Shown piece by piece: positions 14,209 to 31,780 of a stretch of 32,000 bases of DNA (its first letter is position 1; each line of letters opens with the position of its first letter). The position numbers and the translations under genes were made by a program. The DNA is from Pirellula staleyi DSM 6068. GTDB taxonomy: Bacteria; Planctomycetota; Planctomycetia; Pirellulales; Pirellulaceae. Where the stretch lies: the NCBI GenBank assembly GCA_000025185.1, contig CP001848.1, forward strand, positions 1,380,001 to 1,412,000. Reading direction: 5' to 3'. The notes below the pieces were generated by a model. It saw nothing but the letters and a program-made list of their open reading frames with translations. It did not search any database and was not told where the DNA came from.

Positions 14209-15362
14209 TCAAGCAATTCTTTCCACCAAATTAATATGTGCCGTCTTGTGTCCATAAGGTGTTCAGGTAGTTTGCGTGTGTCATCATGAACTAAAAATTT
14301 GCACGCCCCAGTTTGTCCATCTTCACCAAGCCCCCAGGCTGCCCCGTGTCTAGAGCAGTATCCCTTGTCATTAGGGCCTAAAAAAAGAGATGCCCCTCTG
14401 AACGGTGTTGTGGTGTATTTTATTGGCAACTGCTAGTATATATGGGGGGCTGTCAGTGAGATTGTCACTCCCACAGATTTCTTCCAGACTGCTAAATCTG
14501 GCCAGGACTTATTTGCTTACCATGACATATGGACCGGGACGTCACTGCTTGATACCCCAGCGATGGGATATGCCAGATCCACTACTGGCCCGTTGCCCGG
14601 AAAAACCTAAATGTAGGAAAGTCCTGTTTCGTCTTTTACTTGCCCTACCGTGCGAGGTTTTAAGCACGGCCTTGCCAGCTTCATGAGCTTTTTGGTTCGG
14701 GATAAAGTCACTAAGTCATAACCCGTTCACACATCCGTGCGAAGTTGCCAATTACTTCCTCTGTGCCCAATGCCGCAGGATCAATTTCAGCCACGAACAT
14801 CAAGCACTCATCCAGTATAACATACAACCCTCCAAATCCGTTCAATTTCGTGGTTGCGAGAGTTGTAAGATGATTCTGCTCAAGAGCTTATAGCCACAGA
14901 ATCATGTCAAGAATTTGCAGCACTTGGGAGACTTTTTGGCGACCTTTCGCCTTGGATGCTACCCAACAATGCTTTGAGATTCTCTGGTTTGAATGACCCG
15001 CTAGAAGATCGCCTACTTCGACTCACATTTCCATTCGTCAGCACAATGCCCCTCACAGCTCGTTCGCTGCTATGCACCTCTCACAAGACATAATTGCGTC
15101 GCCAACTCTTTCAACGCGATCCTAGGGCCCTCTGCGTGGCCTTGAAACGCTCTCAAACGCCCGCCCCTTCGCCAGTGCCTCTCGTGGCTGAGATCGCGCC
15201 CCAACACTCCCCTTCTCCCCACTGCACAACTGCACTGCTGGGAGCCTCCTCTCCGCGATGCTAAATTGCTCTCCCTGCACCGCACTGAAGCCAGCCATTT
15301 GCCCCAAACTTCCCAGTCGTCCCAGCCTCGCCCCTGCTCCTCTCCGAAATCCCCTCTGCACC

Positions 15363-17765
15363 ATGGCCCTCAAAAAGTCGAGTCTCTACTCCTCCCTCTG
15401 GTCAAGCTGCGACGAACTCCGTGGCGGCATGGACGCCAGTCAGTACAAAGACTACGTCCTGGTGCTCCTCTTCCTCAAATACATCAGCGACAAGTACGCC
15501 AACGTCCCCTACGCGCCGATCGAAGTCCCGAAGGGCTCTAGCTTTAAGGACATGGTCGCCCTCAAGGGAACCAAAGACATCGGCGACGATATCAACAAAA
15601 AGATCATCGCCCCCATCGCCCAGGCCAACCGTTTGTCGGACATGCCCGACTTCAACGACTCCACCAAGCTGGGCAGTGGCAAAGAAAAAGTCGATCGCCT
15701 CACCAACCTCATCGCCATCTTCGAAAACAAGTCGCTCGACTTCTCCAAAAACCGAGCCGATGGCGACGACATCCTGGGCGATGCCTACGAATACCTCATG
15801 CGGCACTTCGCCACCGAAAGTGGCAAGAGCAAAGGCCAGTTCTACACCCCGGCCGAAGTCAGCCGCATCATTGCCCAAATCATCGGCATCAAGACCGCCA
15901 AAACCACTGGCAGCACCACGGTTTACGATCCCACATGCGGCTCCGGCTCGCTCCTGTTGAAAGTCAGCGACGAAGCTCAAACGCCAGTCACCCTCTACGG
16001 CCAAGAGAAAGATGCGGCCACCAGCGGCTTGGCTCGCATGAACACCATCCTGCACAACATGCCCACCGCACTCATCGAGCAAGGCAACACCCTCTCCAAT
16101 CCCCGCTTTGTCGATGGCTCGTCGCTCAAGACGTTCGACTACGTCGTCGCCAATCCACCGTTTTCCGACAAACGCTGGAGCACTGGTCTCGATCCAGCCA
16201 GCGATCCCCACGCCCGTTTCACCCTCGGCATTCCACCCGCCAAGCAGGGCGACTATGCCTATCTCCTGCACATCATCCGCTCCCTCAAATCCACTGGCCA
16301 AGGTGCCTGCATTCTTCCGCACGGTGTTCTGTTTCGCGGCAATGCCGAAGCCGAAATCCGCAAAAACCTGCTTCGCAAGGGCTACATCAAAGGGATCATC
16401 GGCCTACCTGCCAACCTCTTCTATGGCACCGGCATCCCTGCCTGCATTGTGGTGATCGATAAGAAAGAGGCCAACCGTCGCCAAGCGATCTTCATGATCG
16501 ATGCCAGCAGTGGCTACATGAAAGATGGCCCCAAGAACCGGCTCCGTGCCCGCGATATCCATAAGATTGTCGACACCTTCAATCAGCAGCTCGAAGTTCC
16601 CAAGTACTCGCGGCTGGTGACGATCGAAGAGATCGAGAAGAACGACTTCAATCTCAATCTTCCCCGCTACATCGATAGCCAAACGCCTGAAGATATTCAG
16701 AACATCGATGGCCATCTTAAGGGTGGCATACCCGTTGAAGATACCACCTCGCTCGAGCCCTACTGGAAAGTCTGCCCTGGTCTTCAAAAAGCACTTTTCA
16801 AGAAGAATCGCACGGGCTTTGTCGATTTGCGTGTCGAGCCTGCCGAAATCAAGACCACCATCTACCAGCATCCAGAGTTCACCCAGTTCATCACCCAGAT
16901 GAATCAGCACTTTGACACTTGGCGACAAAAGGCGGCCAAGACACTCAAAGCGCTCGATGCGGGCCATCATCCGAAGCAGCTCATCGCCAAACTGGCCGAT
17001 GGATTGCTCGAGCACTATCAGGCTTCGCCACTCATCGATCCCTATGCCGTCTATCAGCACCTGATGGACTACTGGGAAACCACCATGCAAGACGATTGCT
17101 ACAGCATCGCCGCCGATGGTTGGAAGGCCGAGCCGCAGCGATTGGTCGAGCAAACCAAAGCGGGCAAAACCAAAGATCGAGGCTGGGCGTGCGATCTGGT
17201 CCCCAAGTCGCTTGTCGTCGCTCGCTACTTTGCTAAGCAGCAGGCCGAAATCGATTCGCTCGCCGCGATGCTCGAAGCTGCCTCAGCCGCCATTGCCGAA
17301 ATGGAAGAAGAGCATGGTGGCGAGGAAGGTCTGTTTGCCGCACTAGAAAAAATCAGCCTGGCTTCGGTCAAGGCGCGGATGAAGGAGATTGTGGCCGAGG
17401 GTGATACGCTCAGCCGCGAGGAATTCGAGCTACTCGAAAAATACTGCGCCTTGGTGCAAGGCGAAACCACGCTTCGTCGCGATCTGGCGACCAAGACCGA
17501 CGAACTCGACCAGCTGGCCCTGGAACACTATGCCAAGCTCACCCCTGCCGAGATCAAAACCCTGGTGGTCGACGACAAATGGCTCGCCACGCTCGCCGCA
17601 GCTGTGCAGGGTGAAATGGACCGCATCAGCCAATCGCTCACCTCGCGCGTGAAGGAGCTGGCCGAGCGCTACCGCGAGCCGCTCCCCCAGCTTACCCTCC
17701 GCTGCCAACAGCTCGAAGCCCAGGTCAACACGCATCTGGAAAGGATGGGCTTCTCATGGCAGTGA
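15363..17765 (+). CDS. hsdM: Type I restriction-modification system, DNA methyltransferase subunit M (long form, ~800 aa)
   Basis: The N-terminus LWSSCDELRGGMDASQYKDYVLVLLFLKYISDKY is an HsdM N-domain. The SAM motif is VYDPTCGSGSLL and the catalytic motif is VVANPPFS. I prefer the start at the ATG at 15363 (MALKKSSLY...). The upstream part of the track ORF (15258-) is low-complexity. Confidence 0.92.
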   Translation: MALKKSSLYSSLWSSCDELRGGMDASQYKDYVLVLLFLKYISDKYANVPYAPIEVPKGSSFKDMVALKGTKDIGDDINKKIIAPIAQANRLSDMPDFNDSTKLGSGKEKVDRLTNLIAIFENKSLDFSKNRADGDDILGDAYEYLMRHFATESGKSKGQFYTPAEVSRIIAQIIGIKTAKTTGSTTVYDPTCGSGSLLLKVSDEAQTPVTLYGQEKDAATSGLARMNTILHNMPTALIEQGNTLSNPRFVDGSSLKTFDYVVANPPFSDKRWSTGLDPASDPHARFTLGIPPAKQGDYAYLLHIIRSLKSTGQGACILPHGVLFRGNAEAEIRKNLLRKGYIKGIIGLPANLFYGTGIPACIVVIDKKEANRRQAIFMIDASSGYMKDGPKNRLRARDIHKIVDTFNQQLEVPKYSRLVTIEEIEKNDFNLNLPRYIDSQTPEDIQNIDGHLKGGIPVEDTTSLEPYWKVCPGLQKALFKKNRTGFVDLRVEPAEIKTTIYQHPEFTQFITQMNQHFDTWRQKAAKTLKALDAGHHPKQLIAKLADGLLEHYQASPLIDPYAVYQHLMDYWETTMQDDCYSIAADGWKAEPQRLVEQTKAGKTKDRGWACDLVPKSLVVARYFAKQQAEIDSLAAMLEAASAAIAEMEEEHGGEEGLFAALEKISLASVKARMKEIVAEGDTLSREEFELLEKYCALVQGETTLRRDLATKTDELDQLALEHYAKLTPAEIKTLVVDDKWLATLAAAVQGEMDRISQSLTSRVKELAERYREPLPQLTLRCQQLEAQVNTHLERMGFSWQ

Positions 17766-19021
17766 AACCCGGCTTCAAGATGACCGAAATCGGCGAGATA
17801 CCGGCGGAATGGAACGCATATCACTTGTCGCAATTGTGGAAAGTTACTGACTGTAAACATGTAACAGCCACTTTTGTACCTGAAGGCTATCCTGTCGCAA
17901 GTATCAGAGAAGTGCAAAGCAAGTTTGTCAATCTACATGCCGCAAATCATACAACTCCCCACTTTTACAGACTGCTCATCGAGGGAGGACGTGATCCGCA
18001 AGCCGGAGATTTGATTCTAAGTCGAAATGCCACAGTTGGACAAATTGCGCAAGTGTCTCACTCACATCCAAAGTTCGCGATGGGACAAGACGTCTGTCTA
18101 CTTAGAAAAACTTCTCCGACAAATAGTACAGAGTTCATTCAGGCTGTATTTCAATCTCGAATTATAAAACAGCAGATATCCGACATTCTGGTCGGTTCAA
18201 CGTTCAAGAGAATTAATGTCAAGCAAATCAAGGCTTTTATAGTTCCTTCACCATCGGCAGCCGAACAACGGGCGATTGCGGGGGCGTTGTCGGATGTGGA
18301 TGCACTGATCGAGTCGCTCGAGCAGCTGATTGCCAAAAAGCGCGCCATCAAACAAGGAGCCATGCAAGAACTCCTCACCGGCAAACGCCGCCTCCCCGGA
18401 TTTTCAGGAAAATGGGAGAAGAAGCGACTTCAACAAATTGCTTGGTACCAAGAAGGTCCCGGTGTTCAGAAGCATCAGTTCGCAAGTGTCGGGACCAAAT
18501 TATTGAATGGATCGAATATAAGTCATGGCGAACTTTTTCTCGACCAGACTGAACGGTATATCGAAGATCAACTTGCGAATGGGACTTATCGACATTTCTT
18601 ATGCGATGCCGGCGACATCGTCATCGCGTCGTCTGGAATTTCACCGGCGACACTGAATGAAAAGATGGCGATTGTGCAAGCGTCGCATCTCCCACTTTGC
18701 ATGAACACTTCAACGATACGGTTTAAAGCGAATCAGGACCTTGCAACACAAGCGTTTCTATTTGTCTGCTTGCAGGGCAATTCGTTTAGGGATCAGATTG
18801 CTGGCATGGCGACAGGCTCAGCACAGTTAAACTTTGGGCCGTCTCACTTGAATAAAGTTGAACTGCTTCTACCTACCATTTCCGAGCAAGTTGCAGTAGC
18901 CGATGTCATTGGCTCTCTAGAACATGAATTGAGAAAACTTGACGATAGACTCACCAAACTCCGCCTCCTCAAACAAGCGATGATGCAGCAGCTGCTGACG
19001 GGGAAGATTCGGTTGGTGTAA
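17756..19021 (+). CDS. hsdS: Type I restriction-modification system, specificity subunit S
   Basis: Two variable, AT-richer target-recognition regions are separated by the conserved helices AEQRAIAGALSDVDALIESLEQLIAKKRAIKQGAMQELLTGKRRLPGF and SEQVAVADVIGSLEHELRKLDDRLTKLRLLKQAMMQQLLTGKIRLV. It overlaps the hsdM stop (ATGGCAGTGA). An alternative start is at 17780. Confidence 0.9.
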   Translation: MAVKPGFKMTEIGEIPAEWNAYHLSQLWKVTDCKHVTATFVPEGYPVASIREVQSKFVNLHAANHTTPHFYRLLIEGGRDPQAGDLILSRNATVGQIAQVSHSHPKFAMGQDVCLLRKTSPTNSTEFIQAVFQSRIIKQQISDILVGSTFKRINVKQIKAFIVPSPSAAEQRAIAGALSDVDALIESLEQLIAKKRAIKQGAMQELLTGKRRLPGFSGKWEKKRLQQIAWYQEGPGVQKHQFASVGTKLLNGSNISHGELFLDQTERYIEDQLANGTYRHFLCDAGDIVIASSGISPATLNEKMAIVQASHLPLCMNTSTIRFKANQDLATQAFLFVCLQGNSFRDQIAGMATGSAQLNFGPSHLNKVELLLPTISEQVAVADVIGSLEHELRKLDDRLTKLRLLKQAMMQQLLTGKIRLV

Positions 19022-19048
19022 CGCGGGCCCAGCGGCAGGTGGTGAAAT

Positions 19049-19573
19049 ATGCCCCACGGGTGGTGTATAGTGGCGACAGCCGTAAAGGGGATTTGCCGCT
19101 TCGCACCCACATGCGAGATGACCACCGCCATGGAACCGCTCGAACTCGAAAAAGTGATTGCGTTTGTCGCTGATCGTATCGCCCGCAAGATCGCCTACAA
19201 AGTGATGCTCGATCTGCGGAAGATGCCTTGCACCATGTCAGGCGATGATTCGGGACTCTCCAACGTTTGGGAAGAGATCTGTGTGCAGGTGCAGTATGAG
19301 GAGTCGCACTGCTGGGACATCTATGAACAGATGATCCGCGACCTAGTCGAATCGTATGTCGATGAACTCCCCATCGAACTTTACAACGCCGTTTGGCTAC
19401 AAACCGACCCCGGTTTCGATTGGCTTTATGCATCCCCTGAAACACGCAATCCGAGCCCTGCAGAATCAACTTCTGCGTCGAAGTGGGTCTATGACTTTGT
19501 GATCTCAAGAGCTGATTCCTGGTCGAACAAGGCTGTTCGGCGATACCTCCGACGAGCAAGCGAGCGAGACTAA
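19049..19573 (+). CDS. Hypothetical acidic protein embedded between hsdS and hsdR
   Basis: 174-aa ORF with an AGGTGG Shine-Dalgarno-like sequence 6 nt upstream of the ATG at 19049 (alternative ATGs at 19118 and 19130). It is tightly packed, 27 nt after hsdS and 6 nt before hsdR. Net charge from 19118 is about -9 by my count. No recognisable motif. Confidence 0.5.
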   Translation: MPHGWCIVATAVKGICRFAPTCEMTTAMEPLELEKVIAFVADRIARKIAYKVMLDLRKMPCTMSGDDSGLSNVWEEICVQVQYEESHCWDIYEQMIRDLVESYVDELPIELYNAVWLQTDPGFDWLYASPETRNPSPAESTSASKWVYDFVISRADSWSNKAVRRYLRRASERD

Positions 19574-19579
19574 TCCACC

Positions 19580-22500
19580 ATGTCGACCATCGGCGCTCCC
19601 GAACGCGAAACCCAGTCGCGCGTGATCCAGCTATTTTGCCAAGAGCTGGGCTACGACTATCTCGGCGATTTTCGCGACCGCGATGGCAACTCCAACGTCG
19701 AAACCACCTTGCTCGAAAAGTGGCTCGCCGCTCGAGGCTATTCACCCGCCCAAATCAGTGCCGCCATCTACAGGCTCACCAGCGAGGCCCATCACCCCAA
19801 TCGCAAGCTGATGGCCAGCAACAAAGCGGTCTATAGCCTGCTCCGCTACGGCGTGCCGGTGAAGGTGGAAGTCGGCAGCCCCACCGAAACCGTCCACCTC
19901 ATCGACTGGAGCCACCCCGAGCAAAACCACTTTGCCATCGCCGAAGAAGTGACATTGCAAGGCGACCACGACCGTCGCCCTGACCTCGTGATGTATGTCA
20001 ACGGCATTGCCATCGGCGTGATCGAACTCAAGAGCAGTATTGCGAGCATTGGCGAAGGCATTCGGCAACTCCTTTCGAACCAACAGACGCAGTTTCATGC
20101 CTGGTTCTTCTCGACCGTGCAACTGGTGCTCGCCGGTAGCAACTCCGAAGGGCTGCAATATGGAACCATCGGCACCGAGGAAAAGTATTTCCTCAAATGG
20201 AAAGAAGACGAAACCGACAACAGCCGGTTTAAGCTCGACAAATATCTTTTGAAGATCTGCCGCAAGGATCGCTTGATCGAACTACTGCTCGACTTCGTGC
20301 TGTTTGATGGCGGGGTGAAAAAACTGCCCCGCGTGCATCAGTACTTTGGTATCAAAGCGGCCCAGGAGCATGTGCGACAGAAAAAGGGTGGCATCATCTG
20401 GCACACCCAAGGGAGCGGCAAGAGCATTGTGATGGTGCTGCTGGCCAAGTGGATTTTGGAGAACTACCCGCAGGCCCGTGTGGCGATCATCACCGACCGC
20501 GACGAGCTCGATAAGCAAATCGAAGGAGTGCTCCGCGATGCCGGCGCGATTGGCGAAAACGATCAAGTGCGGGCCACCAGTGGCAGCGACCTGATGGTCA
20601 AACTGGCCCAGCCCACCCCCAGGCTGATTTGCTCGCTGGTGCACAAATTCGGCCGCAAGAAGGTCGACAACTTTGAGAAGTTCATCGAGGAACTGGAGGC
20701 TCAGCCTAGCCCTGCGGTGGGCGAACTGTTTGTGTTCGTCGACGAATGCCACCGGACGCAAAGTGGCAAGCTGCATCGAGTGATGAAGGCGCTGCTCCCC
20801 ACGGCAACGTTCATTGGCTTCACCGGCACCCCGCTGCTGAAAGACGACAAGGCCACCAGCCTCGAAATCTTTGGCGGCTATATCCACACCTACAAGTTCA
20901 GCGAAGCTGTCGAAGACAAGGTGGTGCTCGATCTGATCTATGAAGCCCGCGACATCGACCAACGACTATCGAGCCCCGAAAAGATCGACGAGTGGTTCGA
21001 GGCCAAAACACGCGGGCTCAACGACTGGCAAAAGAACGAGCTGAAAACCACGTGGGGAACGATGCAAAACCTGCTCAGTTCCAAATCGCGCATGAACCGC
21101 GTGGTGGCCGACATCCTGCACGACTTCAGCTGTCGCCCCCGGCTGAAAAGCGAACGGGGCAATGCCATCCTCGTCGCCTCTTCGATCTACGAAGCGTGCA
21201 AATACTACAAGCTCTTTCAAGAAACGCCTCTGAAAGGCAAATGCGCGATCATCACCTCGTACAATCCGCAGGCCAAAGACATTACGAAAGAAGAAGTCGG
21301 CGCTAACACCGAGACCGATAAGCAGTTTGTCTACAACACCTATACCGACCTGCTGACCGACGTCGCCCCTAATCCCAAGCAATCAAAAACCGAAACCTAC
21401 GAAGAAAATGCCAAGCATCTGTTTGTCGAAGAACCTGCCAACATGAAGCTATTGGTGGTGGTCGATAAACTCCTCACCGGCTTTGATGCCCCTTCGTGCA
21501 GCTATCTCTACATCGATAAGTCGATGCAGGACCATGGCCTGTTTCAAGCGATCTGCCGCACCAATCGACTCGACGATGACTCGAAAGACTTTGGCTATAT
21601 CGTCGACTATAAGAACCTCTTTAAGAGTGTGCAGAAGGCGATCAAGGTCTATACCTCGGAGATCGACAAAACTTCGGGCGGCTCCGATCCAGAAGTGCTG
21701 ATGCACGATCGTCTTACCAAAGGCAAAGAGCGGCTCGATAATGCCATCGAAGCGATCGAACTTTTGTGTGAACCGGTTGATCCACCGAAGGCAGAACTCG
21801 AACATATTCGCTACTTCTGCGGAAATACCGAAGTTCCCACCGATCTGAAAGAGCGCGAGCCGATGCGTGTGGCGCTCTACAAAGCAACCGTAGCACTGCT
21901 CCGCGCCTATGGAAGCATTGCCGACGAACTGGAAGAGGCTGGGTATAGCGCTGGCGAAGTGAAGCGGATCAAGAAGCGGCTCGATCACTTTGTGAACATG
22001 CGCGAAATCGTTCGCAAAGCGAGCGGCGAAACACTCGATCTTAAACCGTATGAATCGGACATGCGGCACCTGATCGATTCATATATCGATGCGTCGGAGC
22101 CGCGCAAGATCTCGCCCTTTGACAACATGGGGCTCTTGGAACTGATTGTCAAAACGGGAATTGCCGAAGCGATTGCCAACCAGCTTGGCGGGATGAAAGG
22201 AAACCAAGATGCCATCGCCGAGACGATCGAAAACAACGTTCGTAGCAAGATCATTACCGATCGTAATAACGACCCCGCCTTTTATGATCGCATGTCGACC
22301 TTGCTCGACGAAATCGTCGCCGCACGTAAGGCCAAAGCGATCAAGTACGAAGACTTTCTGAAGAAGGTGGCCGAGCTTGCCAAGATGGTTCACGAGGGAA
22401 AAGATGCTGAACTATCGGCTAAACTCAACACGCCTGGCAAGCGAGCCCTTTACAACAATTTAGCCAACGACGAAGCAACGGCGCTCAAAATCGACGAAAC

Positions 22501-22642
22501 GGTGAAGGCTGTGCGACCTGATGACTGGCGCGGCGTACAAGCCCGCGAGAAGATCATTAAGGCAGCCCTTTACGGTGTTTTGCAGGATAGCGAACAAGTG
22601 GAAAAGGTATTTGAGATCGTGAAAGCGCAGAAGGAGTACTAA
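19580..22642 (+). CDS. hsdR: Type I restriction enzyme, R (endonuclease/translocase) subunit
   Basis: SF2 helicase motifs are present: HTQGSGKS (I), FVDECHRTQ (II, DEAH-like), FTGTP (III) and QAICRTNR (VI). The N-terminal nuclease region (DLVMYVNGIAIGVIELK) is typical of HsdR. Length is 1020 aa. Confidence 0.93.
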   Translation: MSTIGAPERETQSRVIQLFCQELGYDYLGDFRDRDGNSNVETTLLEKWLAARGYSPAQISAAIYRLTSEAHHPNRKLMASNKAVYSLLRYGVPVKVEVGSPTETVHLIDWSHPEQNHFAIAEEVTLQGDHDRRPDLVMYVNGIAIGVIELKSSIASIGEGIRQLLSNQQTQFHAWFFSTVQLVLAGSNSEGLQYGTIGTEEKYFLKWKEDETDNSRFKLDKYLLKICRKDRLIELLLDFVLFDGGVKKLPRVHQYFGIKAAQEHVRQKKGGIIWHTQGSGKSIVMVLLAKWILENYPQARVAIITDRDELDKQIEGVLRDAGAIGENDQVRATSGSDLMVKLAQPTPRLICSLVHKFGRKKVDNFEKFIEELEAQPSPAVGELFVFVDECHRTQSGKLHRVMKALLPTATFIGFTGTPLLKDDKATSLEIFGGYIHTYKFSEAVEDKVVLDLIYEARDIDQRLSSPEKIDEWFEAKTRGLNDWQKNELKTTWGTMQNLLSSKSRMNRVVADILHDFSCRPRLKSERGNAILVASSIYEACKYYKLFQETPLKGKCAIITSYNPQAKDITKEEVGANTETDKQFVYNTYTDLLTDVAPNPKQSKTETYEENAKHLFVEEPANMKLLVVVDKLLTGFDAPSCSYLYIDKSMQDHGLFQAICRTNRLDDDSKDFGYIVDYKNLFKSVQKAIKVYTSEIDKTSGGSDPEVLMHDRLTKGKERLDNAIEAIELLCEPVDPPKAELEHIRYFCGNTEVPTDLKEREPMRVALYKATVALLRAYGSIADELEEAGYSAGEVKRIKKRLDHFVNMREIVRKASGETLDLKPYESDMRHLIDSYIDASEPRKISPFDNMGLLELIVKTGIAEAIANQLGGMKGNQDAIAETIENNVRSKIITDRNNDPAFYDRMSTLLDEIVAARKAKAIKYEDFLKKVAELAKMVHEGKDAELSAKLNTPGKRALYNNLANDEATALKIDETVKAVRPDDWRGVQAREKIIKAALYGVLQDSEQVEKVFEIVKAQKEY

Positions 22643-23358
22643 TGAGCGAAGTACTTCAGCTTGGCGACTTGGCGATTGAGCTCATTCAGAAAGACATCAA
22701 GAACGTCCACTTGAGTGTGCATCCACCGCATGGTCGAGTGCGCATTGCAGTGCCCAAGAACATGACGCGCGAGCGGGTGCGGGTGTTTGCTATTTCGAAG
22801 CTGGCATGGATCAGGCAGCAACAAAAGAAACTGCGCGAGCAAGCCCGAGAGTCGCGGCGTGAGTACTCGGAACGCGAGAGCCATTATGTGTGGGGCAAAC
22901 GCTATTTGCTCACCATCCTGGAGAAGAATGAGCCACCCAAGATTGAATTGCTGCATCGCAAGTTGCGAATGACCGTTCGGCCTGTGACGGACGAAGTACA
23001 GCGGGCGGCGCTGCTGGAGGGTTGGTATCGCGAGTTGATTCGTCAGCGGGCACCTGACTTTATTGAGCGTTGGCAAAAGCAGCTGGGTGTGGAGCACTCG
23101 AAGTTTTTTGTACGTCGGATGAAGACCCGCTGGGGAAGCTGCAATCCGGTGCGGCGAACCATTCGGCTCAATACCGATCTCGCCAAAAAACCCATCGAGT
23201 GTCTGGAGTATGTGATTGTGCATGAGTTGATGCACCTCTTGGAGCCAACGCACAATGCTCGTTTTGTACGGCTGATGAATCACCATTTTCCCAGCTGGCA
23301 ACAGTGCCGCAATTTGCTCAACCGCCTACCTGTCAGGCACGAAGATTGGAGGGTGTAG
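22642..23358 (+). CDS. YgjP/DUF45-type (M48/SprT-like) zinc metallopeptidase commonly linked to type I R-M
   Basis: RWGSCNPVRRTIRLNTDLAKKPIECLEYVIVHELMHLLEPTHNARF contains the HExxH zinc motif in the DUF45 context. Its start overlaps the hsdR stop (TAATG). Confidence 0.8.
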   Translation: MSEVLQLGDLAIELIQKDIKNVHLSVHPPHGRVRIAVPKNMTRERVRVFAISKLAWIRQQQKKLREQARESRREYSERESHYVWGKRYLLTILEKNEPPKIELLHRKLRMTVRPVTDEVQRAALLEGWYRELIRQRAPDFIERWQKQLGVEHSKFFVRRMKTRWGSCNPVRRTIRLNTDLAKKPIECLEYVIVHELMHLLEPTHNARFVRLMNHHFPSWQQCRNLLNRLPVRHEDWRV

Positions 23359-23390
23359 GCGGGTCGGATTTTATTTGGCAATCGGGCTCA

Positions 23391-23842
23391 CGTTTTGCTA
23401 CGATCCAAGGCATCGCGGGGAAGCTGGTTTTTCATCAGCTTTGGGCGATAGGTTTGTTTCGCCACGAGCCCGATATGCAGAGTCAGTCGTGGCTGGTGGT
23501 TTTCGGTTTGTTGTAGTTGGAAGGTTGTTTGGAGTATCCAGAGTCGGCGATTCCCAGGTGGATGCGTTTGGATACCTTGGTGAGGGGTGAACTCCTGAGT
23601 GTGGCAGCGTTGCGACAGCAGAGCGCAGTCCGAGCGGTAAGGCACGCACAGGGAGCGATCGCTTCTTGCGATTCAATTTGGCGCACGCGCGCAAGTGGGG
23701 CGTCGATTTGTGAATCCTGAGAGGTTGATGAGGTGTTGGTATGTACGTAGTCGAGAGGCTAGGTTTGTGAAGATGGTTTGCAACTGTTTACTGCTGAAAC
23801 ACTTGGCACGAATTTGGCGAGATCGTGACGGGTGCGGAAGGG
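23391..23842 (+). repeat. CRISPR leader, copy 1 (452 bp, identical to 28350..28801)
   Basis: Every 10-mer block compared by eye is identical to the second copy at a constant offset of 4959 nt. It ends exactly at the first repeat of array 1. It is G/T-rich with no convincing ORF. Confidence 0.85.
23804..23819 (+). promoter_or_regulatory. Sigma-54-like -24/-12 element in leader copy 1
   Basis: TGGCACGaattTGGCg compared with the consensus TGGCACG-N4-TTGCW: the GG and GC dinucleotides are correctly spaced with one mismatch (TTGC to TGGC). The GC lies 24 nt upstream of the first repeat. No experimental support. Confidence 0.25.
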
Positions 23843-25020
23843 GTGTGAGAAAGAGGCCCTTCGGGGCCGATTGAGACTTGTAGTTCGTACGGTGCTCTAA
23901 CCAACTGAGGGTGTGAGAAAGAGGCCCTTCGGGGCCGATTGAGACGACGTCATACGCGTCGTGAGACGTTGGTACGCCAGTGTGAGAAAGAGGCCCTTCG
24001 GGGCCGATTGAGACCCAACCCGACTCAGGGAGATTCTGAAGAACGCTAAGGTGTGAGAAAGAGGCCCTTCGGGGCCGATTGAGACGCGCACCACCAAACA
24101 GATCTCACGAGAGTCGCGCTTAGTGTGAGAAAGAGGCCCTTCGGGGCCGATTGAGACTCTGGCTTCTCAGCCGGAGGCGCCTTTGGCTCCTGTGTGAGAA
24201 TGAGGCCCTTCGGGGCCGATTGAGACGCCTCCGTCGGTGAGTTCTTGATGGCGTCATTTTCGTGTGAGAATGAGGCCCTTCGGGGCCGATTGAGACAGGA
24301 ATTGTTTCCGCCGTTCTTCACGAGCTAAACGCTGTGTGAGAAAGAGGCCCTTCGGGGCCGATTGAGACTACGTCTCGAATGACCCGTGCGTGAAGTAACG
24401 GTGGTGTGAGAAAGAGGCCCTTCGGGGCCGATTGAGACCCGCCGCGATCGGAAAGTTCAATCCGTTCACGCCTGTGTGAGAAAGAGGCCCTTCGGGGCCG
24501 ATTGAGACCCGACATCGCTGACATAGTATCGTGCAACTTCCTTACCCGTGTGAGAAAGAGGCCCTTCGGGGCCGATTGAGACCGCGGAGCGGCAACCGGG
24601 ATGTCGATCCCGAGACGATCGGTGTGAGAAAGAGGCCCTTCGGGGCCGATTGAGACACTCGGGTTTGCGAAATCCTCATCGACACTGATTGCGTGTGAGA
24701 AAGAGGCCCTTCGGGGCCGATTGAGACGAAGGAATGTGCCTACGCGACTACTACACGGAATCGTGCGTGTGAGAATGAGGCCCTTCGGGGCCGATTGAGA
24801 CTGCGTGAAATACCGATGGTACCCCACCGTCACCCGAGTGTGAGAATGAGGCCCTTCGGGGCCGATTGAGACTTCCCTTGCAGGAGGCTCACGGCTGTCA
24901 TTGTTAGGTTTCGTGTGAGAAAGAGGCCCTTCGGGGCCGATTGAGACGGACTCCTCGTAACGGTCCTCCATGTCCTCACGGTGCAGGGTGAGAAAGAGGC
25001 CCTTCGGGGCCGATCTTTAA
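23843..25020 (+). CRISPR. CRISPR array 1: 17 repeats (last one degenerate), 16 spacers
   Basis: The 35-nt repeat is GTGTGAGAAAGAGGCCCTTCGGGGCCGATTGAGAC. It has an internal GGCCC-TTCG-GGGCC hairpin and a 3' ATTGAGAC, the canonical Cas6-type 8-nt handle. Repeat starts: 23843, 23911, 23980, 24051, 24123, 24192, 24262, 24334, 24404, 24474, 24548, 24622, 24693, 24767, 24838, 24913, 24986. Spacers are 33-40 nt and all unique. The terminal repeat diverges (GGGTGAG...GATCTTTAA), consistent with a leader on the left. Confidence 0.95.
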
Positions 25021-25106
25021 GCTTGCACCCAGACCAGTAGCAATTCCGTTCGATTCCGAGTACCACAGGAGAACGAAACCCCGCTGCCCAACCCAGGCAC
25101 GAAACT

Positions 25107-27935
25107 ATGCAGATCTTTCGCGTCCGCGTGCTACTGCGCATCAAAACCGCCACGCGGATGCACGCCCATCACGCTGCCATCTTGTATGCGCTGCTCTGCG
25201 AAGCTCACGCCGCTGCACACCAGATCGATCCCTGCATTCCCGATGGGCTCCTCCTCGATGCTCCCGAGCAAGCCAGGCTCATGCTCGCCGCTGGCAGCAA
25301 GTATGCCTTCGGCTTCACGCTCCTTGCGCCCACCGAGCGACAAGCCTGCACCGTGGTCGATCATCTCGTGCGTGGTCTGCGCAAGGTGGGACGCGCCAAA
25401 ACCAAACCTAAGCCCGCTTTGGGTGGCAATTTTGAGGTCGAGCTGGTTGAAGATCTGGTAGCGAAGCAAACCCATCGCACCGGGCATCCACTGCAGCCGA
25501 TTGCCATTGAGGCCATCACCCAAGAGATTGCCGCGCTTGAAGGTTTAGTGCAACTCACCTTACAATTCCATTCGCCCCTGCGAGCCCATCGTCCCAAGAA
25601 GGCACGACGCGATGGTCACCAGTTTTTTGATGATCACTATTTCCATCCGCAGGCACTATTGCACCGCTTGCAATCTCGGATCGAATCACTAGGCATCTGT
25701 CCCGCTCCGTTTCAGCCTCATCTTCGGCCCCAAGCGGCTGCCCCACTCGATGGCTGGCCCGAACCTGCTTCGCCACTACCGGAAGATGCAGCTGAACCCA
25801 TCAGTCACTCCCCAATTCCCGCCGTTGTTTCGAATGAATTGGTTTGGCTCGACGTCTCGTATGGACCCCGGCACTCGCGCAAAACATTGGGAGGGGCCGT
25901 TGGATCGGTCAAGCTCGACGGACTTCAGCCTGCCACGATCGCCACACTTGTTTGGGGGCAGTATGTGCGCATCGGGGAGGGAACCCGGTTTGGTTTTGGG
26001 GCCTATCGCATCGCTGAGCTAGCAAGCGATCCCTATGTTTGCGAGCGTTCAACCCGCCTACTCGATCTTGCCACCGAGCATCCAGCACTCGACCAAGCTG
26101 CTTCGAAGTGGGATCTCGGTGGTGGTGAGGTTCAATCAGCGGCCCGTGATCTCGTGAAGGGAACCTATCAACCGCAGCCCTGCTTTCGCCTAGATATCCC
26201 CAAATCCAATGGCGACCGGCGTCAGCTCGCCATTCCCAGTCGACTCGATCGTGTGCTTCAGCGGAGCATCCTGGATGTGATTGCTCCAGCACTCGAGTTG
26301 TTCTTTGAAGAGTCGTCGTTTGCCTATCGTCGCGGTCTGGGGCGACACACCGCTGCGCGGCATCTGAGCCAAGCCTTTACCGATGGTTATCGTTGGGCTT
26401 TACACGCCGATTTCTTTGACTTTTTTGACACCATCGACCACAAACTATTGCGCCGTCGGCTCGCTGCCTATTTGGCAGATCCTAGCTTGGTAGAAGTTAT
26501 CATGCGCTGGGTCGAAACCGGTGCGCCTCATCCAGACCATGGCATTCCAACCGGCGCACCTCTCTCGCCGATCTTGGCAAACTTGTTCCTCGATCAGTTT
26601 GACGAAGCGATGCACAGCGTGGGGCGTCGACTCGTCCGCTATGCCGATGATTTTGTCGTCCTCTTTCGCGATCAATCCGAAGCACAAGCAGTGATTAGTG
26701 AAGTACGCCAAGCAGCAGAGTCGCTTCGCCTGGAACTCAATCGCGACAAGACGCACACACTCCACCTCGCCACATCCTTTGACTTTTTAGGACTCCATTT
26801 CGAGCCTCGAGAAATTTGGGAGGTCACCACCATTGACGAGCCCCAGCTCATCGAGCAGCTGGGATGGAAAGAGCGCTCGCGCAAGCCCTCTGGTGGCGTG
26901 CTGCATCCTCTGCCAGGTGAAAGCCAACTAGCAACACCGCTTCCAGGTACTTTGATTGCAGGCCCTGGCATAGAAGAAATTCTCGTTCACGGCGATGTGC
27001 TTCAATTCAAACATCAAGATCAGCGTGGTATTGAATCGATCCCCTTGCACACGCTACGCGAGGTCGTTGTTCTAGGAGCGGTCTCGCTTTCCCACCGTGT
27101 ACTATCTGCCATTCAGCAGAATGCTATCTCGCTGTTGCTTTTGGACGAGTCGGCAAATCGAACGGCATACATCGACTGTCAAAACGCCGAACCCGATTCA
27201 GCAGGAATTGAAGCCCAAGTTGATTTGATTCGAAATCCTGAAAGTAGCTTAGCAATCGCTCGCCAATTGATTTCAGCAAAACTGCATAACTATGCGACCT
27301 TGGCAGACGCCTATCCACCCAAGTCACACTCAGGAAATGCCCATCGTTCCTTGATGCGACTGGCAAAGGATGCCCAGCAAGCATCGTCGCTGCCAGAACT
27401 GCTTGGTATCGAGGGAAGCGGAGCTGCGCTTTGGTATGGCGAAATCGGGATGCGGCTTTCCCCCGGCTTCCACTGGGAGCGTCGAGTCGCGCCCAACGCT
27501 CATGACCCTGTCAATATTCTGCTGAATCTCGCGCAAACAGTTCTCTATCGCATGACACAACATGCCATCGCCCAAGCTAAGCTCGTCGACACCCTGGGGT
27601 TTTTGCATCAGCCACGCGCGGGGCATGCAGCCCTGGCGTCCGATATGCAAGAACCTTTTCGTCACTTGATGGATCGAGCGGTATTAGAGACCGTGCGGCG
27701 TATTCGACCGGAAGAGTTTGAACCCGACGAACGTGGTCCTTTTCCAGTACGCATGAAACCGCGAGCACTTCGTGAATCACTGGCGTGGATTCATCGAATA
27801 CTTGCCCTGCCATGCAATGGTGCCGGGCAATCTTCTCCAACAGCCTATCGATTGCAGATCTTCAAACAGGTCCGATCTTTTCGAAGGTTCCTGATGGATC
27901 CTGGAGGACGGTTTGAGCCGTTTCGACATCCATGA
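25107..27935 (+). CDS. cas1: Cas6-reverse transcriptase-Cas1 fusion protein (type III-associated RT-Cas1)
   Basis: The N-terminal ~300 aa end in a Cas6-like glycine-rich loop, GEGTRFGFGAYRI. The central group-II-intron-like RT has RRQLAIPSRLDRVLQRSIL, IPTGAPLSPILANLFL and the catalytic RYADDFVVL. The C-terminal Cas1 has ELLGIEGSGAALWY, NAHDPVNILLNLAQTVLY and ASDMQEPFRHLMDRAVL. Confidence 0.9.
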   Translation: MQIFRVRVLLRIKTATRMHAHHAAILYALLCEAHAAAHQIDPCIPDGLLLDAPEQARLMLAAGSKYAFGFTLLAPTERQACTVVDHLVRGLRKVGRAKTKPKPALGGNFEVELVEDLVAKQTHRTGHPLQPIAIEAITQEIAALEGLVQLTLQFHSPLRAHRPKKARRDGHQFFDDHYFHPQALLHRLQSRIESLGICPAPFQPHLRPQAAAPLDGWPEPASPLPEDAAEPISHSPIPAVVSNELVWLDVSYGPRHSRKTLGGAVGSVKLDGLQPATIATLVWGQYVRIGEGTRFGFGAYRIAELASDPYVCERSTRLLDLATEHPALDQAASKWDLGGGEVQSAARDLVKGTYQPQPCFRLDIPKSNGDRRQLAIPSRLDRVLQRSILDVIAPALELFFEESSFAYRRGLGRHTAARHLSQAFTDGYRWALHADFFDFFDTIDHKLLRRRLAAYLADPSLVEVIMRWVETGAPHPDHGIPTGAPLSPILANLFLDQFDEAMHSVGRRLVRYADDFVVLFRDQSEAQAVISEVRQAAESLRLELNRDKTHTLHLATSFDFLGLHFEPREIWEVTTIDEPQLIEQLGWKERSRKPSGGVLHPLPGESQLATPLPGTLIAGPGIEEILVHGDVLQFKHQDQRGIESIPLHTLREVVVLGAVSLSHRVLSAIQQNAISLLLLDESANRTAYIDCQNAEPDSAGIEAQVDLIRNPESSLAIARQLISAKLHNYATLADAYPPKSHSGNAHRSLMRLAKDAQQASSLPELLGIEGSGAALWYGEIGMRLSPGFHWERRVAPNAHDPVNILLNLAQTVLYRMTQHAIAQAKLVDTLGFLHQPRAGHAALASDMQEPFRHLMDRAVLETVRRIRPEEFEPDERGPFPVRMKPRALRESLAWIHRILALPCNGAGQSSPTAYRLQIFKQVRSFRRFLMDPGGRFEPFRHP

Positions 27936-28204
27936 GCCTCTACTTGGCCAGCTACGACATTTCGGACGACAAACGGAGAGCGAAAGTCGCCCGATTCCTA
28001 CTACAGTTTGGCGCTCGACTTCAGAAGTCGGTTTTTGAGATCGACCTCGATCCCGATGAGATTGCAGAGTTTCGCCGGGACGTTGGCTCGATCCTGTCAC
28101 AAAAGGACTTGTTTGTGTTGGTGCCAGTCGATGAACGTGGCAGCCGATCCACTCTCTCGTGGCAACGTGAATTGAGGCGGATGGATGCAGTGATCGTCCT
28201 TTAG
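27932..28204 (+). CDS. cas2: CRISPR-associated endoribonuclease Cas2
   Basis: 90 aa. MSLYLASYDISDDKRRAKVARFLLQFGARLQKSVFE is the canonical Cas2 beta1-alpha1-beta2 with the conserved Asp. ATGA overlaps the RT-cas1 stop. Confidence 0.85.
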   Translation: MSLYLASYDISDDKRRAKVARFLLQFGARLQKSVFEIDLDPDEIAEFRRDVGSILSQKDLFVLVPVDERGSRSTLSWQRELRRMDAVIVL

Positions 28205-28349
28205 CGGGCACGGCGTCTGTGAGACTGTTTCTCCCAGGTTCGGCCTCGTCTTGCAACTCATTGCTTGCCTTAGGATTACGCGAAAGCAAAGCTGGCAACG
28301 ACTGGCGATGCGCAAAAATCGGTGTCGCAAATCGTTGGCTAGCCATTCT

Positions 28350-28801
28350 CGTTTTGCTACGATCCAAGGCATCGCGGGGAAGCTGGTTTTTCATCAGCTT
28401 TGGGCGATAGGTTTGTTTCGCCACGAGCCCGATATGCAGAGTCAGTCGTGGCTGGTGGTTTTCGGTTTGTTGTAGTTGGAAGGTTGTTTGGAGTATCCAG
28501 AGTCGGCGATTCCCAGGTGGATGCGTTTGGATACCTTGGTGAGGGGTGAACTCCTGAGTGTGGCAGCGTTGCGACAGCAGAGCGCAGTCCGAGCGGTAAG
28601 GCACGCACAGGGAGCGATCGCTTCTTGCGATTCAATTTGGCGCACGCGCGCAAGTGGGGCGTCGATTTGTGAATCCTGAGAGGTTGATGAGGTGTTGGTA
28701 TGTACGTAGTCGAGAGGCTAGGTTTGTGAAGATGGTTTGCAACTGTTTACTGCTGAAACACTTGGCACGAATTTGGCGAGATCGTGACGGGTGCGGAAGG
28801 G
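28350..28801 (+). repeat. CRISPR leader, copy 2 (452 bp, identical to 23391..23842)
   Basis: See copy 1. It begins 146 nt after the cas2 stop and ends at the first repeat of array 2. Confidence 0.85.
28763..28778 (+). promoter_or_regulatory. Sigma-54-like -24/-12 element in leader copy 2
   Basis: Same TGGCACGaattTGGCg sequence as at 23804, at the same distance from the first repeat. Confidence 0.25.
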
Positions 28802-29837
28802 GTGTGAGAAAGAGGCCCTTCGGGGCCGATTGAGACCTCATCGCTGAGCTTCTTCTTCGCGGCGGCCTTTGCGTGTGAGAAAGAGGCCCTTCGGGGCCGA
28901 TTGAGACCAAGAATTCTGCCGAAGTAGTGAGAGTCATCCCAGTGTGAGAAAGAGGCCCTTCGGGGCCGATTGAGACAATTGATGATGTCGAGATAGATTG
29001 CAAGTGCGCAATCGTGTGAGAAAGAGGCCCTTCGGGGCCGATTGAGACAATGCCGCCGTTCTCGTTACGTTCAAAACTGAAGTCGTGTGAGAAAGAGGCC
29101 CTTCGGGGCCGATTGAGACACAAGAACCGTACTCCAAACCTTGCCAGTCTTGCGTGTGAGAAAGAGGCCCTTCGGGGCCGATTGAGACTTCCGGCCTCCG
29201 GCCGGAATCACCGTGGTTTGACGTGTGAGAATGAGGCCCTTCGGGGCCGATTGAGACGTGATCGAGGCAGAGTTAAACGCAGTCCATCCGAGTGTGAGAA
29301 TGAAGGCCCTTCGGGGCCGATTGAGACGATGAGGCCATTACCTTCTTTTCTTTGCCTTTTAGGTGTGAGAATGAGGCCCTTCGGGGCCGATTGAGACCAG
29401 TTCGGTTGCGACGGCGATGGGGTCTTGCCCGAAGTGTGAGAAAGAGGCCCTTCGGGGCCGATTGAGACACCGTCCGCGTTCCATCCCTGTAGGGACAAAT
29501 CCCCAGCCTCCGTGTGAGAATGAGGCCCTTCGGGGCCGATTGAGACCGTCGCTGGCAACGGTGTTCTCTATCTGATTTTCGGGTGTGAGAAAGAGGCCCT
29601 TCGGGGCCGATTGAGACGCAACAGCGACAGAAGTGATGATGAACAGAACAGCAACCGTGTGAGAAAGAGGCCCTTCGGGGCCGATTGAGACCGCACGACT
29701 TTGCCTTTTTCGTACAGCTTGTTGATTTGCCGTGTGAGAAAGAGGCCCTTCGGGGCCGATTGAGACGTTCTGCATGATCCAGAACAGACTGGAGCAGTGG
29801 CGGTGTGAGAAAGAGGCCCTTCGGGGCCAATTTGACG
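28802..29837 (+). CRISPR. CRISPR array 2: 15 repeats (last one degenerate), 14 spacers
   Basis: Same 35-nt repeat and orientation as array 1. Repeat starts: 28802, 28873, 28942, 29014, 29085, 29154, 29223, 29292, 29363, 29434, 29512, 29583, 29657, 29732, 29803. Spacers are 34-43 nt and all unique, with none shared with array 1. Repeat 8 is 36 nt (extra A). The terminal repeat diverges (…GGGGCCAATTTGACG). Confidence 0.95.
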
Positions 29838-29898
29838 GCTGTTTGATGCAGCTATTTTGTGCCGCGCACTTCGGGTGAAGAATTCACAATTCGGTGTA

Positions 29899-29927
29899 TT
29901 GATTTTGGAAAATTGCCGGGCTATCAT
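29899..29927 (+). promoter_or_regulatory. Sigma-70-like promoter candidate upstream of the 570-aa gene
   Basis: TTGATT (29899-29904), a 17-nt spacer, then TATCAT (22-27 of 299xx), about 140 nt upstream of the ATG at 30068. This is a sequence pattern only, and the promoter consensus for this organism is unknown. Confidence 0.2.
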
Positions 29928-30067
29928 CCTCGACGCCTACTGCCAAAGGGGTGTATCCATGCTTCTAGAGTGCCGGTTCTTTAGCATCCGATACTCTACT
30001 CAACGATCCTCACGCTTTTTGCCGTTGAACTTGCTTCCCAGCGTCTACCTTCGTTAAGTACAGCCCC

Positions 30068-31780
30068 ATGTCCCAGCCAGCTTCGCCGGCGACTGAAATT
30101 CCGGTGGAGCTGTTTCGCCAGATTCTGATTTGGCCGTTGCTGATTCATGCCCCTCATGGCGAATCAGCAATGGAATTAATGGATCTTGTAACGGACGAGC
30201 TAGAGCGTCACTCGTGGCATTGGAATGATCGATCCGCAGGCCAAAGTGCTTCGCCGCTGAAGGGGCTTCCTTGGTATCAGGACGATCATGACTATTCGGA
30301 GATCGTTTACTTCCACTCCTACGTGCGCGACTTTCTCTATGGAGGCGATGGAACACCGGCTAGCGAGCGACCACTTCGCGTCCTTCGTCGTACCGACATT
30401 GCTTCACTCCTGTTAAAGGTTGATGAAGGTCGCGAATATCGGCTGAAGGTCGAACGTGTCGAAGCCTATCTGTTCGATTCAGGCATTCTGCAAGTCGTGG
30501 TAGAAGTTGCCGCCCCGCAATTGGTATCCAAGTCGCCGACCGATAGTGAGCAGTTGCGGCCATTCATGCTCAGCGATGCACTCGATCTACAGAATGTGCT
30601 GCGCATGGCTTTTCCGCGCCGCTGGAAGCCGAAAACTGGCATACCTTCGGAAACTCCACACCGAGCTTGTTGGCTCAACTCCGAGGGAAGTGAAATCGCC
30701 GGGAGTGTTCAGGACTTTCTTAACCAGGAAGACTTTACTCGGATCGTGCGCGAGCAGGCCGAACTGCCGGCCGCCAAACACTGGCAGTATCTCGTCCAAC
30801 CCCTGCCACTCTTTGAGCGACGGGTTTGCACTGGATTGTCGGTCAAGCAAATTGAAGACCAGCGTTTACCTTCGATGTCGTACATCGCTGTCCCTGATCC
30901 GCGTTTGATTTCCGACGGCGACTTTGAGCGAATCGCCTTCTTCGACAGCGCCGGTCAGTCTTCGGTAGGTTCCTATTCCGATGAATTTCTAGTCGGTTGG
31001 GAAAAGGATCATGCTTACGACCGCTTTTGGCAACGACTCCCCAGCGAAGGCGGTCCTGAAGTTGCCCTGCATAACCAAATGATGCGAACTCGTTGGCTCT
31101 GCAGCGGCTATGGTTTTGCGGTGGTGGGTGCCAGCGGCGACAAGTTCTTCACTACTCAGATTGCAGCCAACTTTCGCCATCACTATTTTCGCATGGGGCT
31201 GATCGCCCATTTTCATCGTGCCAAGCTAATCTCACTTCGTGACCAACTTGCTGAAGCGACAAAACAGGTAGGTGAGAACTTCCGCAATCGCGTGATGGAG
31301 ATCCAGCGAAGCGCTACCATCTTTCGCGCCCGATTCTGGTTTCATGAGGTATCCACACAGCTTCAAGGTCGTGAGATTTTCACGTGGTGGTCCAATCGAC
31401 TCGGCAATCCATCGCTATTTGAGCATGTGATTTCCGACATCGAAGCTGCTGAGTCGCAAGTTCGAACCGAATTTGAAGCAGAAGAATCTCAAGACATTAA
31501 CCTCATCACACGCGTGGGTGGTGCGATTGGTATTCTGAGTATTGTACTCTCAATTGTAGCGCTAATCATTTCGCTGCTTGCACTGGAAGCCATTTCGCCA
31601 CTTAAGCAGTTTGCGATCATGCCAGCCAATCCATGGGACTGGACAGTTGCCAACCTCTGGCTTGGCCGTATCGCCTCGATCGCGTGCCCCCTATCAATTG
31701 TGAGCCTTTGGATTCTATTGGTCGTCTATGGTGGGCTTCGATATTACAAGAGCCATCGTCGTACTCGACGCTTGAGGTAG
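30068..31780 (+). CDS. Hypothetical membrane protein: large cytoplasmic domain plus C-terminal two-TM hairpin, CorA-like architecture (candidate CRISPR-associated membrane effector)
   Basis: 570-aa ORF with good coding character. The last ~90 aa read DINLITRVGGAIGILSIVLSIVALIISLLAL - loop FAIMPANPWDW - LWLGRIASIACPLSIVSLWILLVVYGGL - basic tail YYKSHRRTRRLR. This parallels CorA (N..M..LT - TM1 - GMN/MPEL.W loop - TM2 - basic tail) but lacks GMN. Long helical segments precede it (HYFRMGLIAHFHRAKLISLRDQLAEA...). The family assignment is inference only. Confidence 0.5.
   Translation: MSQPASPATEIPVELFRQILIWPLLIHAPHGESAMELMDLVTDELERHSWHWNDRSAGQSASPLKGLPWYQDDHDYSEIVYFHSYVRDFLYGGDGTPASERPLRVLRRTDIASLLLKVDEGREYRLKVERVEAYLFDSGILQVVVEVAAPQLVSKSPTDSEQLRPFMLSDALDLQNVLRMAFPRRWKPKTGIPSETPHRACWLNSEGSEIAGSVQDFLNQEDFTRIVREQAELPAAKHWQYLVQPLPLFERRVCTGLSVKQIEDQRLPSMSYIAVPDPRLISDGDFERIAFFDSAGQSSVGSYSDEFLVGWEKDHAYDRFWQRLPSEGGPEVALHNQMMRTRWLCSGYGFAVVGASGDKFFTTQIAANFRHHYFRMGLIAHFHRAKLISLRDQLAEATKQVGENFRNRVMEIQRSATIFRARFWFHEVSTQLQGREIFTWWSNRLGNPSLFEHVISDIEAAESQVRTEFEAEESQDINLITRVGGAIGILSIVLSIVALIISLLALEAISPLKQFAIMPANPWDWTVANLWLGRIASIACPLSIVSLWILLVVYGGLRYYKSHRRTRRLR

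Follow-up and report, generated by a model that had tools for sequence, protein, structure and literature searches.

A perfectly duplicated leader and first repeat in the CRISPR locus of Pirellula staleyi DSM 6068, probably a young copy in a Cas6-RT-Cas1 family with recurrent second arrays

The placement of an adaptation operon between two CRISPR arrays is already known from the type III-D system of Vibrio vulnificus YJ016, where two arrays with identical repeats flank an operon encoding Cas2 and a Cas1 fused to a reverse transcriptase (RT-Cas1) (Gonzalez-Delgado et al., 2019, PMC6821258). Both of these arrays have been assayed for promoter activity and for RT-dependent spacer uptake; their leaders diverge only past 119 bp, the arrays are unequal in promoter strength and in uptake, and only one of the two, CRISPR01, has constitutive promoter activity (PMC6821258). 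A second point of reference is the Cas6-RT-Cas1-Cas2 integrase of Thiomicrospira (7KFT/7KFU; Wang et al., 2021), which is site-specific with a leader of 49-163 bp (PMC8102632). Leaders of the Sulfolobales measure 200-400 bp (PMC4390879), and S. islandicus REY15A carries two loci with identical leaders (PMC9456107). The RT-Cas1 of Pirellula staleyi DSM 6068 has likewise been listed previously (Silas et al., 2017, PMC5513706). Here we analyze the locus to which it belongs, in a 32,000-nt stretch of contig CP001848.1 (hereafter the window), where a cas6-RT-cas1 fusion gene and cas2 lie between two arrays that are each preceded by the same 452-bp leader. A first-pass annotation of this DNA had taken the zero divergence of the leaders to argue for gene conversion or for constraint on the whole leader rather than for recent duplication. 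Our comparison with related loci points the other way, as the leaders of relatives cannot be aligned with each other and paired leaders within them have drifted to 77-98% identity. We therefore favor, with moderate confidence, the reading that zero divergence in P. staleyi reflects a young copy of the leader and repeat 1 taken from the cas2 side.

The elements on which this reading depends are arranged as follows, in window coordinates:

23391..23842, + strand: leader copy 1, probably derived; 452 bp, 100% identical to 28350-28801
23843..25020, + strand: CRISPR array 1; 17 repeats of 35 nt, 16 spacers of 33-40 nt
25021..25106, + strand: gap between array 1 and cas6-RT-cas1; 86 nt
25107..27935, + strand: cas6-RT-cas1 fusion gene; 942 aa; PF10040, PF00078, PF01867
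27932..28204, + strand: cas2; 90 aa; PF09827, E = 1.7e-15
28205..28349, + strand: non-duplicated stretch 3' of cas2, probably the distal part of the native leader region; 145 nt; no similarity to the flank of copy 1 found (p = 0.10)
28350..28801, + strand: leader copy 2, probably the parent; in the family's usual place 3' of cas2
28802..29837, + strand: CRISPR array 2; 15 repeats, 14 spacers of 34-43 nt

At a fixed offset of 4959, positions 23391-23877 and 28350-28836 are 100% identical over 487 bp, a block made up of the 452-bp leader (23391-23842 / 28350-28801) and the whole 35-nt repeat 1 (GTGTGAGAAAGAGGCCCTTCGGGGCCGATTGAGAC). The first-pass annotation had recorded identical 452-bp leaders at this offset, and the comparison agrees with it at every position. 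It had also placed the end of identity at repeat 1; its leader length stands, but the match runs on through all 35 nt of that repeat. Just outside both ends of the block identity falls to 10-19 of 50 positions, a random level, and the break is sharp at 23390/23391. The left flanks and the trailers of the two arrays, when compared, proved unrelated and without residual similarity beyond the 487-bp block. The whole genome, a single contig of 6,196,199 bp, holds only these two copies of the leader and only these two arrays with this repeat. A perfect repeat of 487 bp cannot be chance.

Set beside the described systems, the locus most resembles that of V. vulnificus YJ016 in layout, with an adaptation operon flanked by two same-repeat arrays and near-identical leaders. 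The V. vulnificus RT-Cas1 lacks a fused Cas6, however, and is accompanied by two Cas2 proteins, arrays of 2 and 9 spacers and leaders that differ slightly, whereas in P. staleyi Cas6 is fused, the 452-bp leaders show no difference and the two arrays are of comparable size, with a type III-D2-like effector. With Thiomicrospira it shares the three-domain fusion; the Thiomicrospira repeat is 35 bp, with integration at the leader-repeat junction, but the relation is distant, and that work concerned a single array and did not address duplicated leaders. S. islandicus REY15A is similar in having two arrays around the cas genes, both of which take up spacers, and identical long leaders; it differs in being an archaeal type I-A system with inversely oriented arrays and no RT. 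Since the two-array layout has been published for V. vulnificus YJ016, what is added here is small, namely its recurrence across a protein family and the graded decay of the copies.

Both arrays consist of regular direct repeats separated by unique spacers of 33-43 nt, and in array 2 one repeat (R8, 29292-29327) is a 36-nt variant with an extra A. Our array calls agree with the first-pass description of a shared repeat and orientation with 16 versus 14 unique spacers, and comparison of all 16 and 14 found no spacer common to the two arrays. Polarity from leader to distal end is evident in both arrays, as each starts with a perfect repeat 1 and closes with a repeat carrying 6 mismatches. The same degenerate distal repeat had been ascribed to both arrays. 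Both terminal repeats are indeed degenerate, but they are unlike each other: that of array 1 (GGGTGAG...GATCTTTAA) is degenerate at nt 2 and from nt 30, and that of array 2 (GTGTGAG...GGCCAATTTGACG) from nt 27. A repeat variant with T in place of A at nt 10 (A10T) occupies internal blocks of both, comprising R6-7 and R14-15 of array 1 (24192-24296, 24767-24872) and R7-9 and R11 of array 2 (29223-29397, 29512-29546), and these blocks follow the same order from old to new (A, T, A, T, A). New repeats are copies of the first repeat. The A10T mosaic would thus need recombination within or between arrays, or between strains. Comparable mixing of repeats has been discussed for Pyrobaculum (PMC3396285).

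Evidence on where the second leader came from lies mostly in other genomes. Among 60 taxonomic relatives of P. staleyi we found no orthologue of Cas6-RT-Cas1 or of the leader; these carry group II intron RTs and a separate Cas1. The nearest proteins in a large database have 58-61% identity. Taking one genome per species, a scan yielded a related set of 78 loci, in which arrays were called wherever the flank was sufficient. In their usual layout, cas6-RT-cas1 and cas2 are followed by a single array after a gap of 272-434 nt (median 346). Relatives with one array and an unrelated leader, which the first-pass annotation had named as the observation that would imply a trivial recent segmental duplication, make up most of the related loci. 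The length of the gap in relatives also makes long leaders a trait of the family. The leaders of P. staleyi, which had been called unusually long, are in this light not exceptional, with a cas2-to-repeat gap of 597 nt of which the proximal 452 nt is the duplicated part. The window has arrays flanking the gene on either side, and so do the related loci L058, L088, L044, L081 and L079, as well as L086, where the gene contains stops. On a maximum-likelihood tree of 39 proteins two-array loci are never sisters, and parsimony requires 6 changes for the two-array state, or 5 if only demonstrably paralogous leader pairs are counted. The leader pairs found within related loci are:

L037: 609 nt and 420 nt, 97.7% and 95% identical; three tandem leader-array units; the closest relative
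L058: 352 nt, 95.7% identical; starts 4 nt past the cas2 stop
L060: 444 nt, 95.5% identical; the cas2 3' end is included here too
L088: 443 nt, 91.4% identical; starts 101 nt inside cas2
L044: 103 nt and 135 nt, 99% and 84% identical
L081: 87 nt, 78% identical
L086: 102 nt, 77% identical

In the long pairs (L037, L058, L060 and L088) homology stops exactly at the 3' end of repeat 1, as it does in the window, while the left breakpoint of the copied block is different in each locus. Mismatches between paired leaders are scattered over the full leader length, and no spacer is common to any pair of arrays in the relatives. These four loci belong to the same protein family (31-59% identity) and have repeats of 35-36 nt ending in ATTGAAAC, ATTGAGAC or similar; like P. 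staleyi they have paired leaders, here of 320-570 nt, with homology up to repeat 1 and spacers that are not shared. They differ in that their pairs are 91-98% identical and their leader sequences are unrelated to that of P. staleyi. Indeed, leaders of different loci cannot be aligned either as DNA or in translation, and this includes the leader of L037 (59% protein identity) against that of the window. The 3' fragments of cas2 carried by the copies in L088 and L060 identify those copies as segmental ones made from the leader on the cas2 side. Taken with left breakpoints that vary between loci and with the scatter of two-array loci over the tree, these fragments show that second arrays have arisen repeatedly by segmental copying of the cas2-side leader and repeat 1, with an estimated at least 5-6 independent gains. 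Within the series of decay that the pairs form, from 100% down to 77%, the window is apparently the youngest case.

Two of these loci have further peculiarities of their own. L088 shares one contig of a metagenome-assembled genome (MAG) of Candidatus Multivoradales with a second locus, L096, such that two cas6-RT-cas1-cas2-leader modules lie 21.6 kb apart; 605 nt covering the end of cas2 and the leader are 100% identical between the modules, and a third leader copy (91%) lies upstream of one of them. In L037 (13150-16290), from a Pirellulales MAG, the three tandem leader-array units run on the other strand from cas6-RT-cas1, whose frame contains two stops; two of these units have a degenerate terminal repeat in common, along with a 231-nt trailer (98.7%).

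For P. staleyi, the usual layout of relatives, with the array 3' of cas2, would put copy 2 in the ancestral position, and we infer that copying ran from there. The native leader would be copy 2, adjoining cas2, and a segment reaching from 145 nt past cas2 through the first repeat would have been copied to a site between a restriction-modification operon and cas6-RT-cas1, with a non-homologous junction on the left and the right end lying in the repeat. The abrupt left junction and the unlike trailers agree with a discrete copy of recent date. The copy could either have seeded array 1 or have joined an existing run of repeats. Since the copy includes repeat 1 and the integration signals next to it, both leader-repeat junctions would be open to Cas1-Cas2, with each array gaining its own spacers. 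The fused Cas6 domain would then cut both transcripts 8 nt before the repeat end, leaving an expected handle of AUUGAGAC. A variant of this scheme was considered and set aside: array seeding by reverse transcription of Cas6-cut leader RNA predicts terminal repeats truncated at nt 27/28, and the onset of terminal-repeat decay proved to vary between nt 12 and nt 33, for parental as well as daughter arrays.

Several observations sit poorly with a young copy. The presumed daughter, array 1, is the larger of the two, with 16 spacers against 14 in array 2. In the terminal repeat of array 1 a change at nt 2 accompanies the 3' break, which is unexpected given that 904 nt of leader are unchanged. The A10T variant, which is rare, lies in internal blocks of both arrays, a pattern that growth from a single copied repeat cannot yield without recombination. 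Moreover, the collections searched contain a single genome of this lineage. A strain about 98% identical is represented by a DNA run (X1) with five low-depth contigs, among which one leader contig has a depth of 2.6 and single-copy cas contigs have depths of 2.0-2.7; at best, these depths hint faintly at a leader present in one copy.

A different account makes both arrays and both leaders old, with the leader and first repeat kept identical, or lately made so, by gene conversion between the 487-bp copies. We regard this as a real possibility, though the less likely of the two. Direct repeats of 487 bp lying 5 kb apart are a good substrate for recombination, and the excess of G over C on the non-template strand would favor R-loops and could promote it. 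The terminal repeats, decayed independently with six mismatches each, and the larger size of array 1 suggest that both arrays are of some age, and the A10T mosaic, with its common order, calls for exchange of repeat sequence within or between arrays. Against it, no zone of partial similarity is present past the identical block. Divergence of 2-23%, spread over the full length, separates the copies of every other two-array relative, such that homogenization is not a property of the family, and on the tree separate recent gains are favored over a two-array state of long standing. Two copies in one genome resemble each other more closely than copies from different genomes. A hybrid of the two accounts is possible, in which repair copies the leader and first repeat; one end would be resolved in a repeat of an array already present, and the other would be joined non-homologously.

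Strong purifying selection on all 452 bases, whether as a structured RNA, a small gene or dense protein-binding sites, is in our estimate very improbable and is largely refuted by the relatives. The + strand fold (z = -2.05), the extreme base composition and a mild G-over-C skew common to leaders of the family speak for it to some degree. Against it, the leader shows no similarity, as DNA or translated, to any leader of another locus, the closest relative's included. When 33 independent leaders are anchored at repeat 1, only positions -6 to -1 are clearly conserved (GGTGCR), with faint signals to about -60, and paired leaders in relatives change everywhere. Rfam returns no match to the leader, its internal GGTTTG repeats are not significant, and the Thiomicrospira enzyme needs a leader of at most 49-163 bp (PMC8102632). 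An equally small chance attaches to the identity being an artefact of assembly or polishing that hides slight differences between the real copies. Repeats of about 500 bp can be homogenized during finishing, but each copy is set among flanks and spacers of its own, the genome was assembled as one contig, and leader pairs close to identity are common in relatives. With these alternatives weighed, a young copy from the cas2 side remains the explanation that we prefer.

What the leader might contain was approached from its sequence. In most Cas6-RT-Cas1 loci the GGTGCR motif, a candidate for leader anchoring, lies directly against repeat 1; the window has GGGTGCG at 23830-23836, 6 nt further from repeat 1 than the family motif and followed by GAAGGG. 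Two promoter-like sites were noted:

23375..23404, + strand: sigma-70-like TTGGCA-18-TACGAT across the left edge of copy 1; 9/12 consensus matches, TG before the -10
23804..23819 and 28763-28778, + strand: sigma-54-like TGGCAC-N5-TGGC, 24 nt before repeat 1

At the place in copy 2 that corresponds to the first site stands TTGGCT-17-TACGAT (8/12), which is below the scan threshold; in both copies this is a consensus match only. The genome encodes rpoN; the -12 variant TGGC of the sigma-54 site is not enriched genome-wide (20 sites vs 17 in the control), and the canonical TTGCW form is (14 vs 4). The top strand of the leader has a G-C skew of +0.32 and a G+T content of 63%, each within the top 0.04-0.05% of 452-nt windows of the genome, and this strong skew may mark an R-loop-prone transcribed leader. 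Across the family, leaders have a mean G-C skew of +0.087, compared with -0.010 in the RT-cas1 gene (Wilcoxon p ~3e-4, the loci not being independent). Three other contents were rejected. The leader as a structured RNA was dropped, as the fold against shuffles reaches just z = -2.05 on the + strand (-0.35 on the - strand), there are no alignable homologues for covariation, and an Rfam search of 22500-30500 at a permissive threshold gave no match. The leader as a gene was dropped because there is no conserved translated similarity between loci, minus-strand open reading frames (ORFs) of 85-98 aa being unsupported. Finally, the GGTTTG repeats as binding sites are not significant given the base composition (p ~0.2).

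Both arrays are most likely used by a single Cas1-Cas2 integrase, judging from the perfect first repeats, the identical integration signals and the separate spacer sets; the earlier view of both as acquisition sites fits the intact first repeats and wholly different spacers. The most recent acquisition in array 1 deserves description:

23878..23910, + strand: newest spacer of array 1; antisense to a tRNA-like sequence

Of its 33 nt, 23 match the host tRNA-Val(CAC) exactly (genome 909663-909685), in a stretch covering D-arm to anticodon stem and ending within the anticodon loop. The spacer could derive from an abundant RNA, from a foreign tRNA, or from an attachment site or element with a partial tRNA gene. 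This partial match, which is also the one hint here of spacer uptake from RNA, is the only one between the spacers and the host genome, and no credible spacer match was found in a phage collection.

The first-pass identification of a Cas6-RT-Cas1/Cas2 module between the arrays is well founded, in that one polypeptide contains Cas6 (PF10040, 28.8 bits against a cut-off of 25), RT (PF00078) and Cas1 (PF01867) domains and the next ORF encodes Cas2. The best solved relative of the 942-aa protein is the Thiomicrospira Cas6-RT-Cas1 (7KFT, E = 6e-72). In an alignment of 24 proteins the YADD motif (Y512, D514, D515) and E769, H834, D846 and E849 are invariant columns; the latter four we take, by their position, to be the Cas1 catalytic residues. 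The fusion is the sole cas1 of the genome, and its Cas6 domain is the sole Cas6-like domain found by a search with PF10040 and PF01881, which makes the earlier suggestion that the fused Cas6 processes both transcripts plausible. Downstream of array 2 lie the following:

29837..29853, + strand: terminator-like hairpin and T-run directly 3' of array 2
29899-29927: promoter-like TTGATT-17-TATCAT, 5' of the effector operon
30068..31780, + strand: first gene of a type III-D2-like effector operon; 570 aa

The 570-aa protein has no Pfam or NCBIfam match. Later genes of the operon (L016) encode a Cas10 palm2-like protein of 499 aa, a RAMP/Csx10-like protein of 666 aa and a Cas7x3 protein of 1272 aa. 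The Cas7x3 assignment is strong (TIGR03986, 302 bits vs a cut-off of 161), while the matches to Cas10 palm2 (26.4 bits, cut-off 27) and to Csx10 are weak. With a Cas7x3 fusion, an apparently HD-less Cas10-like protein and a Csx10-like RAMP adjoining the arrays, the effector module is, on domain content, type III-D2-like.

The setting of array 1 raises a further idea about the upstream leader. No promoter-like site, and no terminator-like site on the + strand, was found in the 86-nt gap at 25021-25106, such that read-through from leader 1 into cas6-RT-cas1 would be possible. Accordingly, the upstream leader copy might have been recruited, in at least 5 lineages, as a promoter of the adaptation operon, with array 1 and cas6-RT-cas1-cas2 forming one transcript that is freed by its own Cas6 domain. 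We think this unlikely, if less so than selection on the whole leader. It draws on the contrast between the open 86-nt gap and the terminator-like hairpin that follows array 2, on upstream arrays lying 90-363 nt from the gene in L081, L086, L058 and L088, and on the constitutive activity of CRISPR01 alone in V. vulnificus (PMC6821258), in which CRISPR01 is assumed to be the upstream array. If true, promoter recruitment would couple production of CRISPR RNA, expression of the adaptation genes and possibly R-loop-assisted integration at the G-skewed leader.

Beyond the CRISPR locus itself, a type I restriction-modification operon lies 5' of leader 1 on the same strand (15258-23358), in the order hsdM, hsdS, a 174-aa unknown ORF, hsdR and a YgjP-like metallopeptidase that ends at 23358. 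This operon and the CRISPR locus make up a defense island. Past the effector operon is an IS5-family transposase (L016:12888-13694).

In sum, the P. staleyi locus appears to be an ordinary pair of arrays attached to a type III-D2-like system whose one adaptation module is RNA-capable. Its wider meaning comes from the Cas6-RT-Cas1 family, in which second arrays recur by copying of the cas2-side leader with exactly one repeat, after which the copies drift freely over their full length save for a few bases adjoining the repeat. The family also tends towards long leaders (~300-450 nt) whose sense strand is rich in G. The series of pairs from 100% to 77% identity thereby offers a natural set for asking which leader bases matter in integration by RT-Cas1, and may be useful for engineering RT-Cas1 enzymes as RNA recorders. 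P. staleyi, if a culture of the strain can be obtained, would provide a clean system in which to compare acquisition at two sites that differ in context only.

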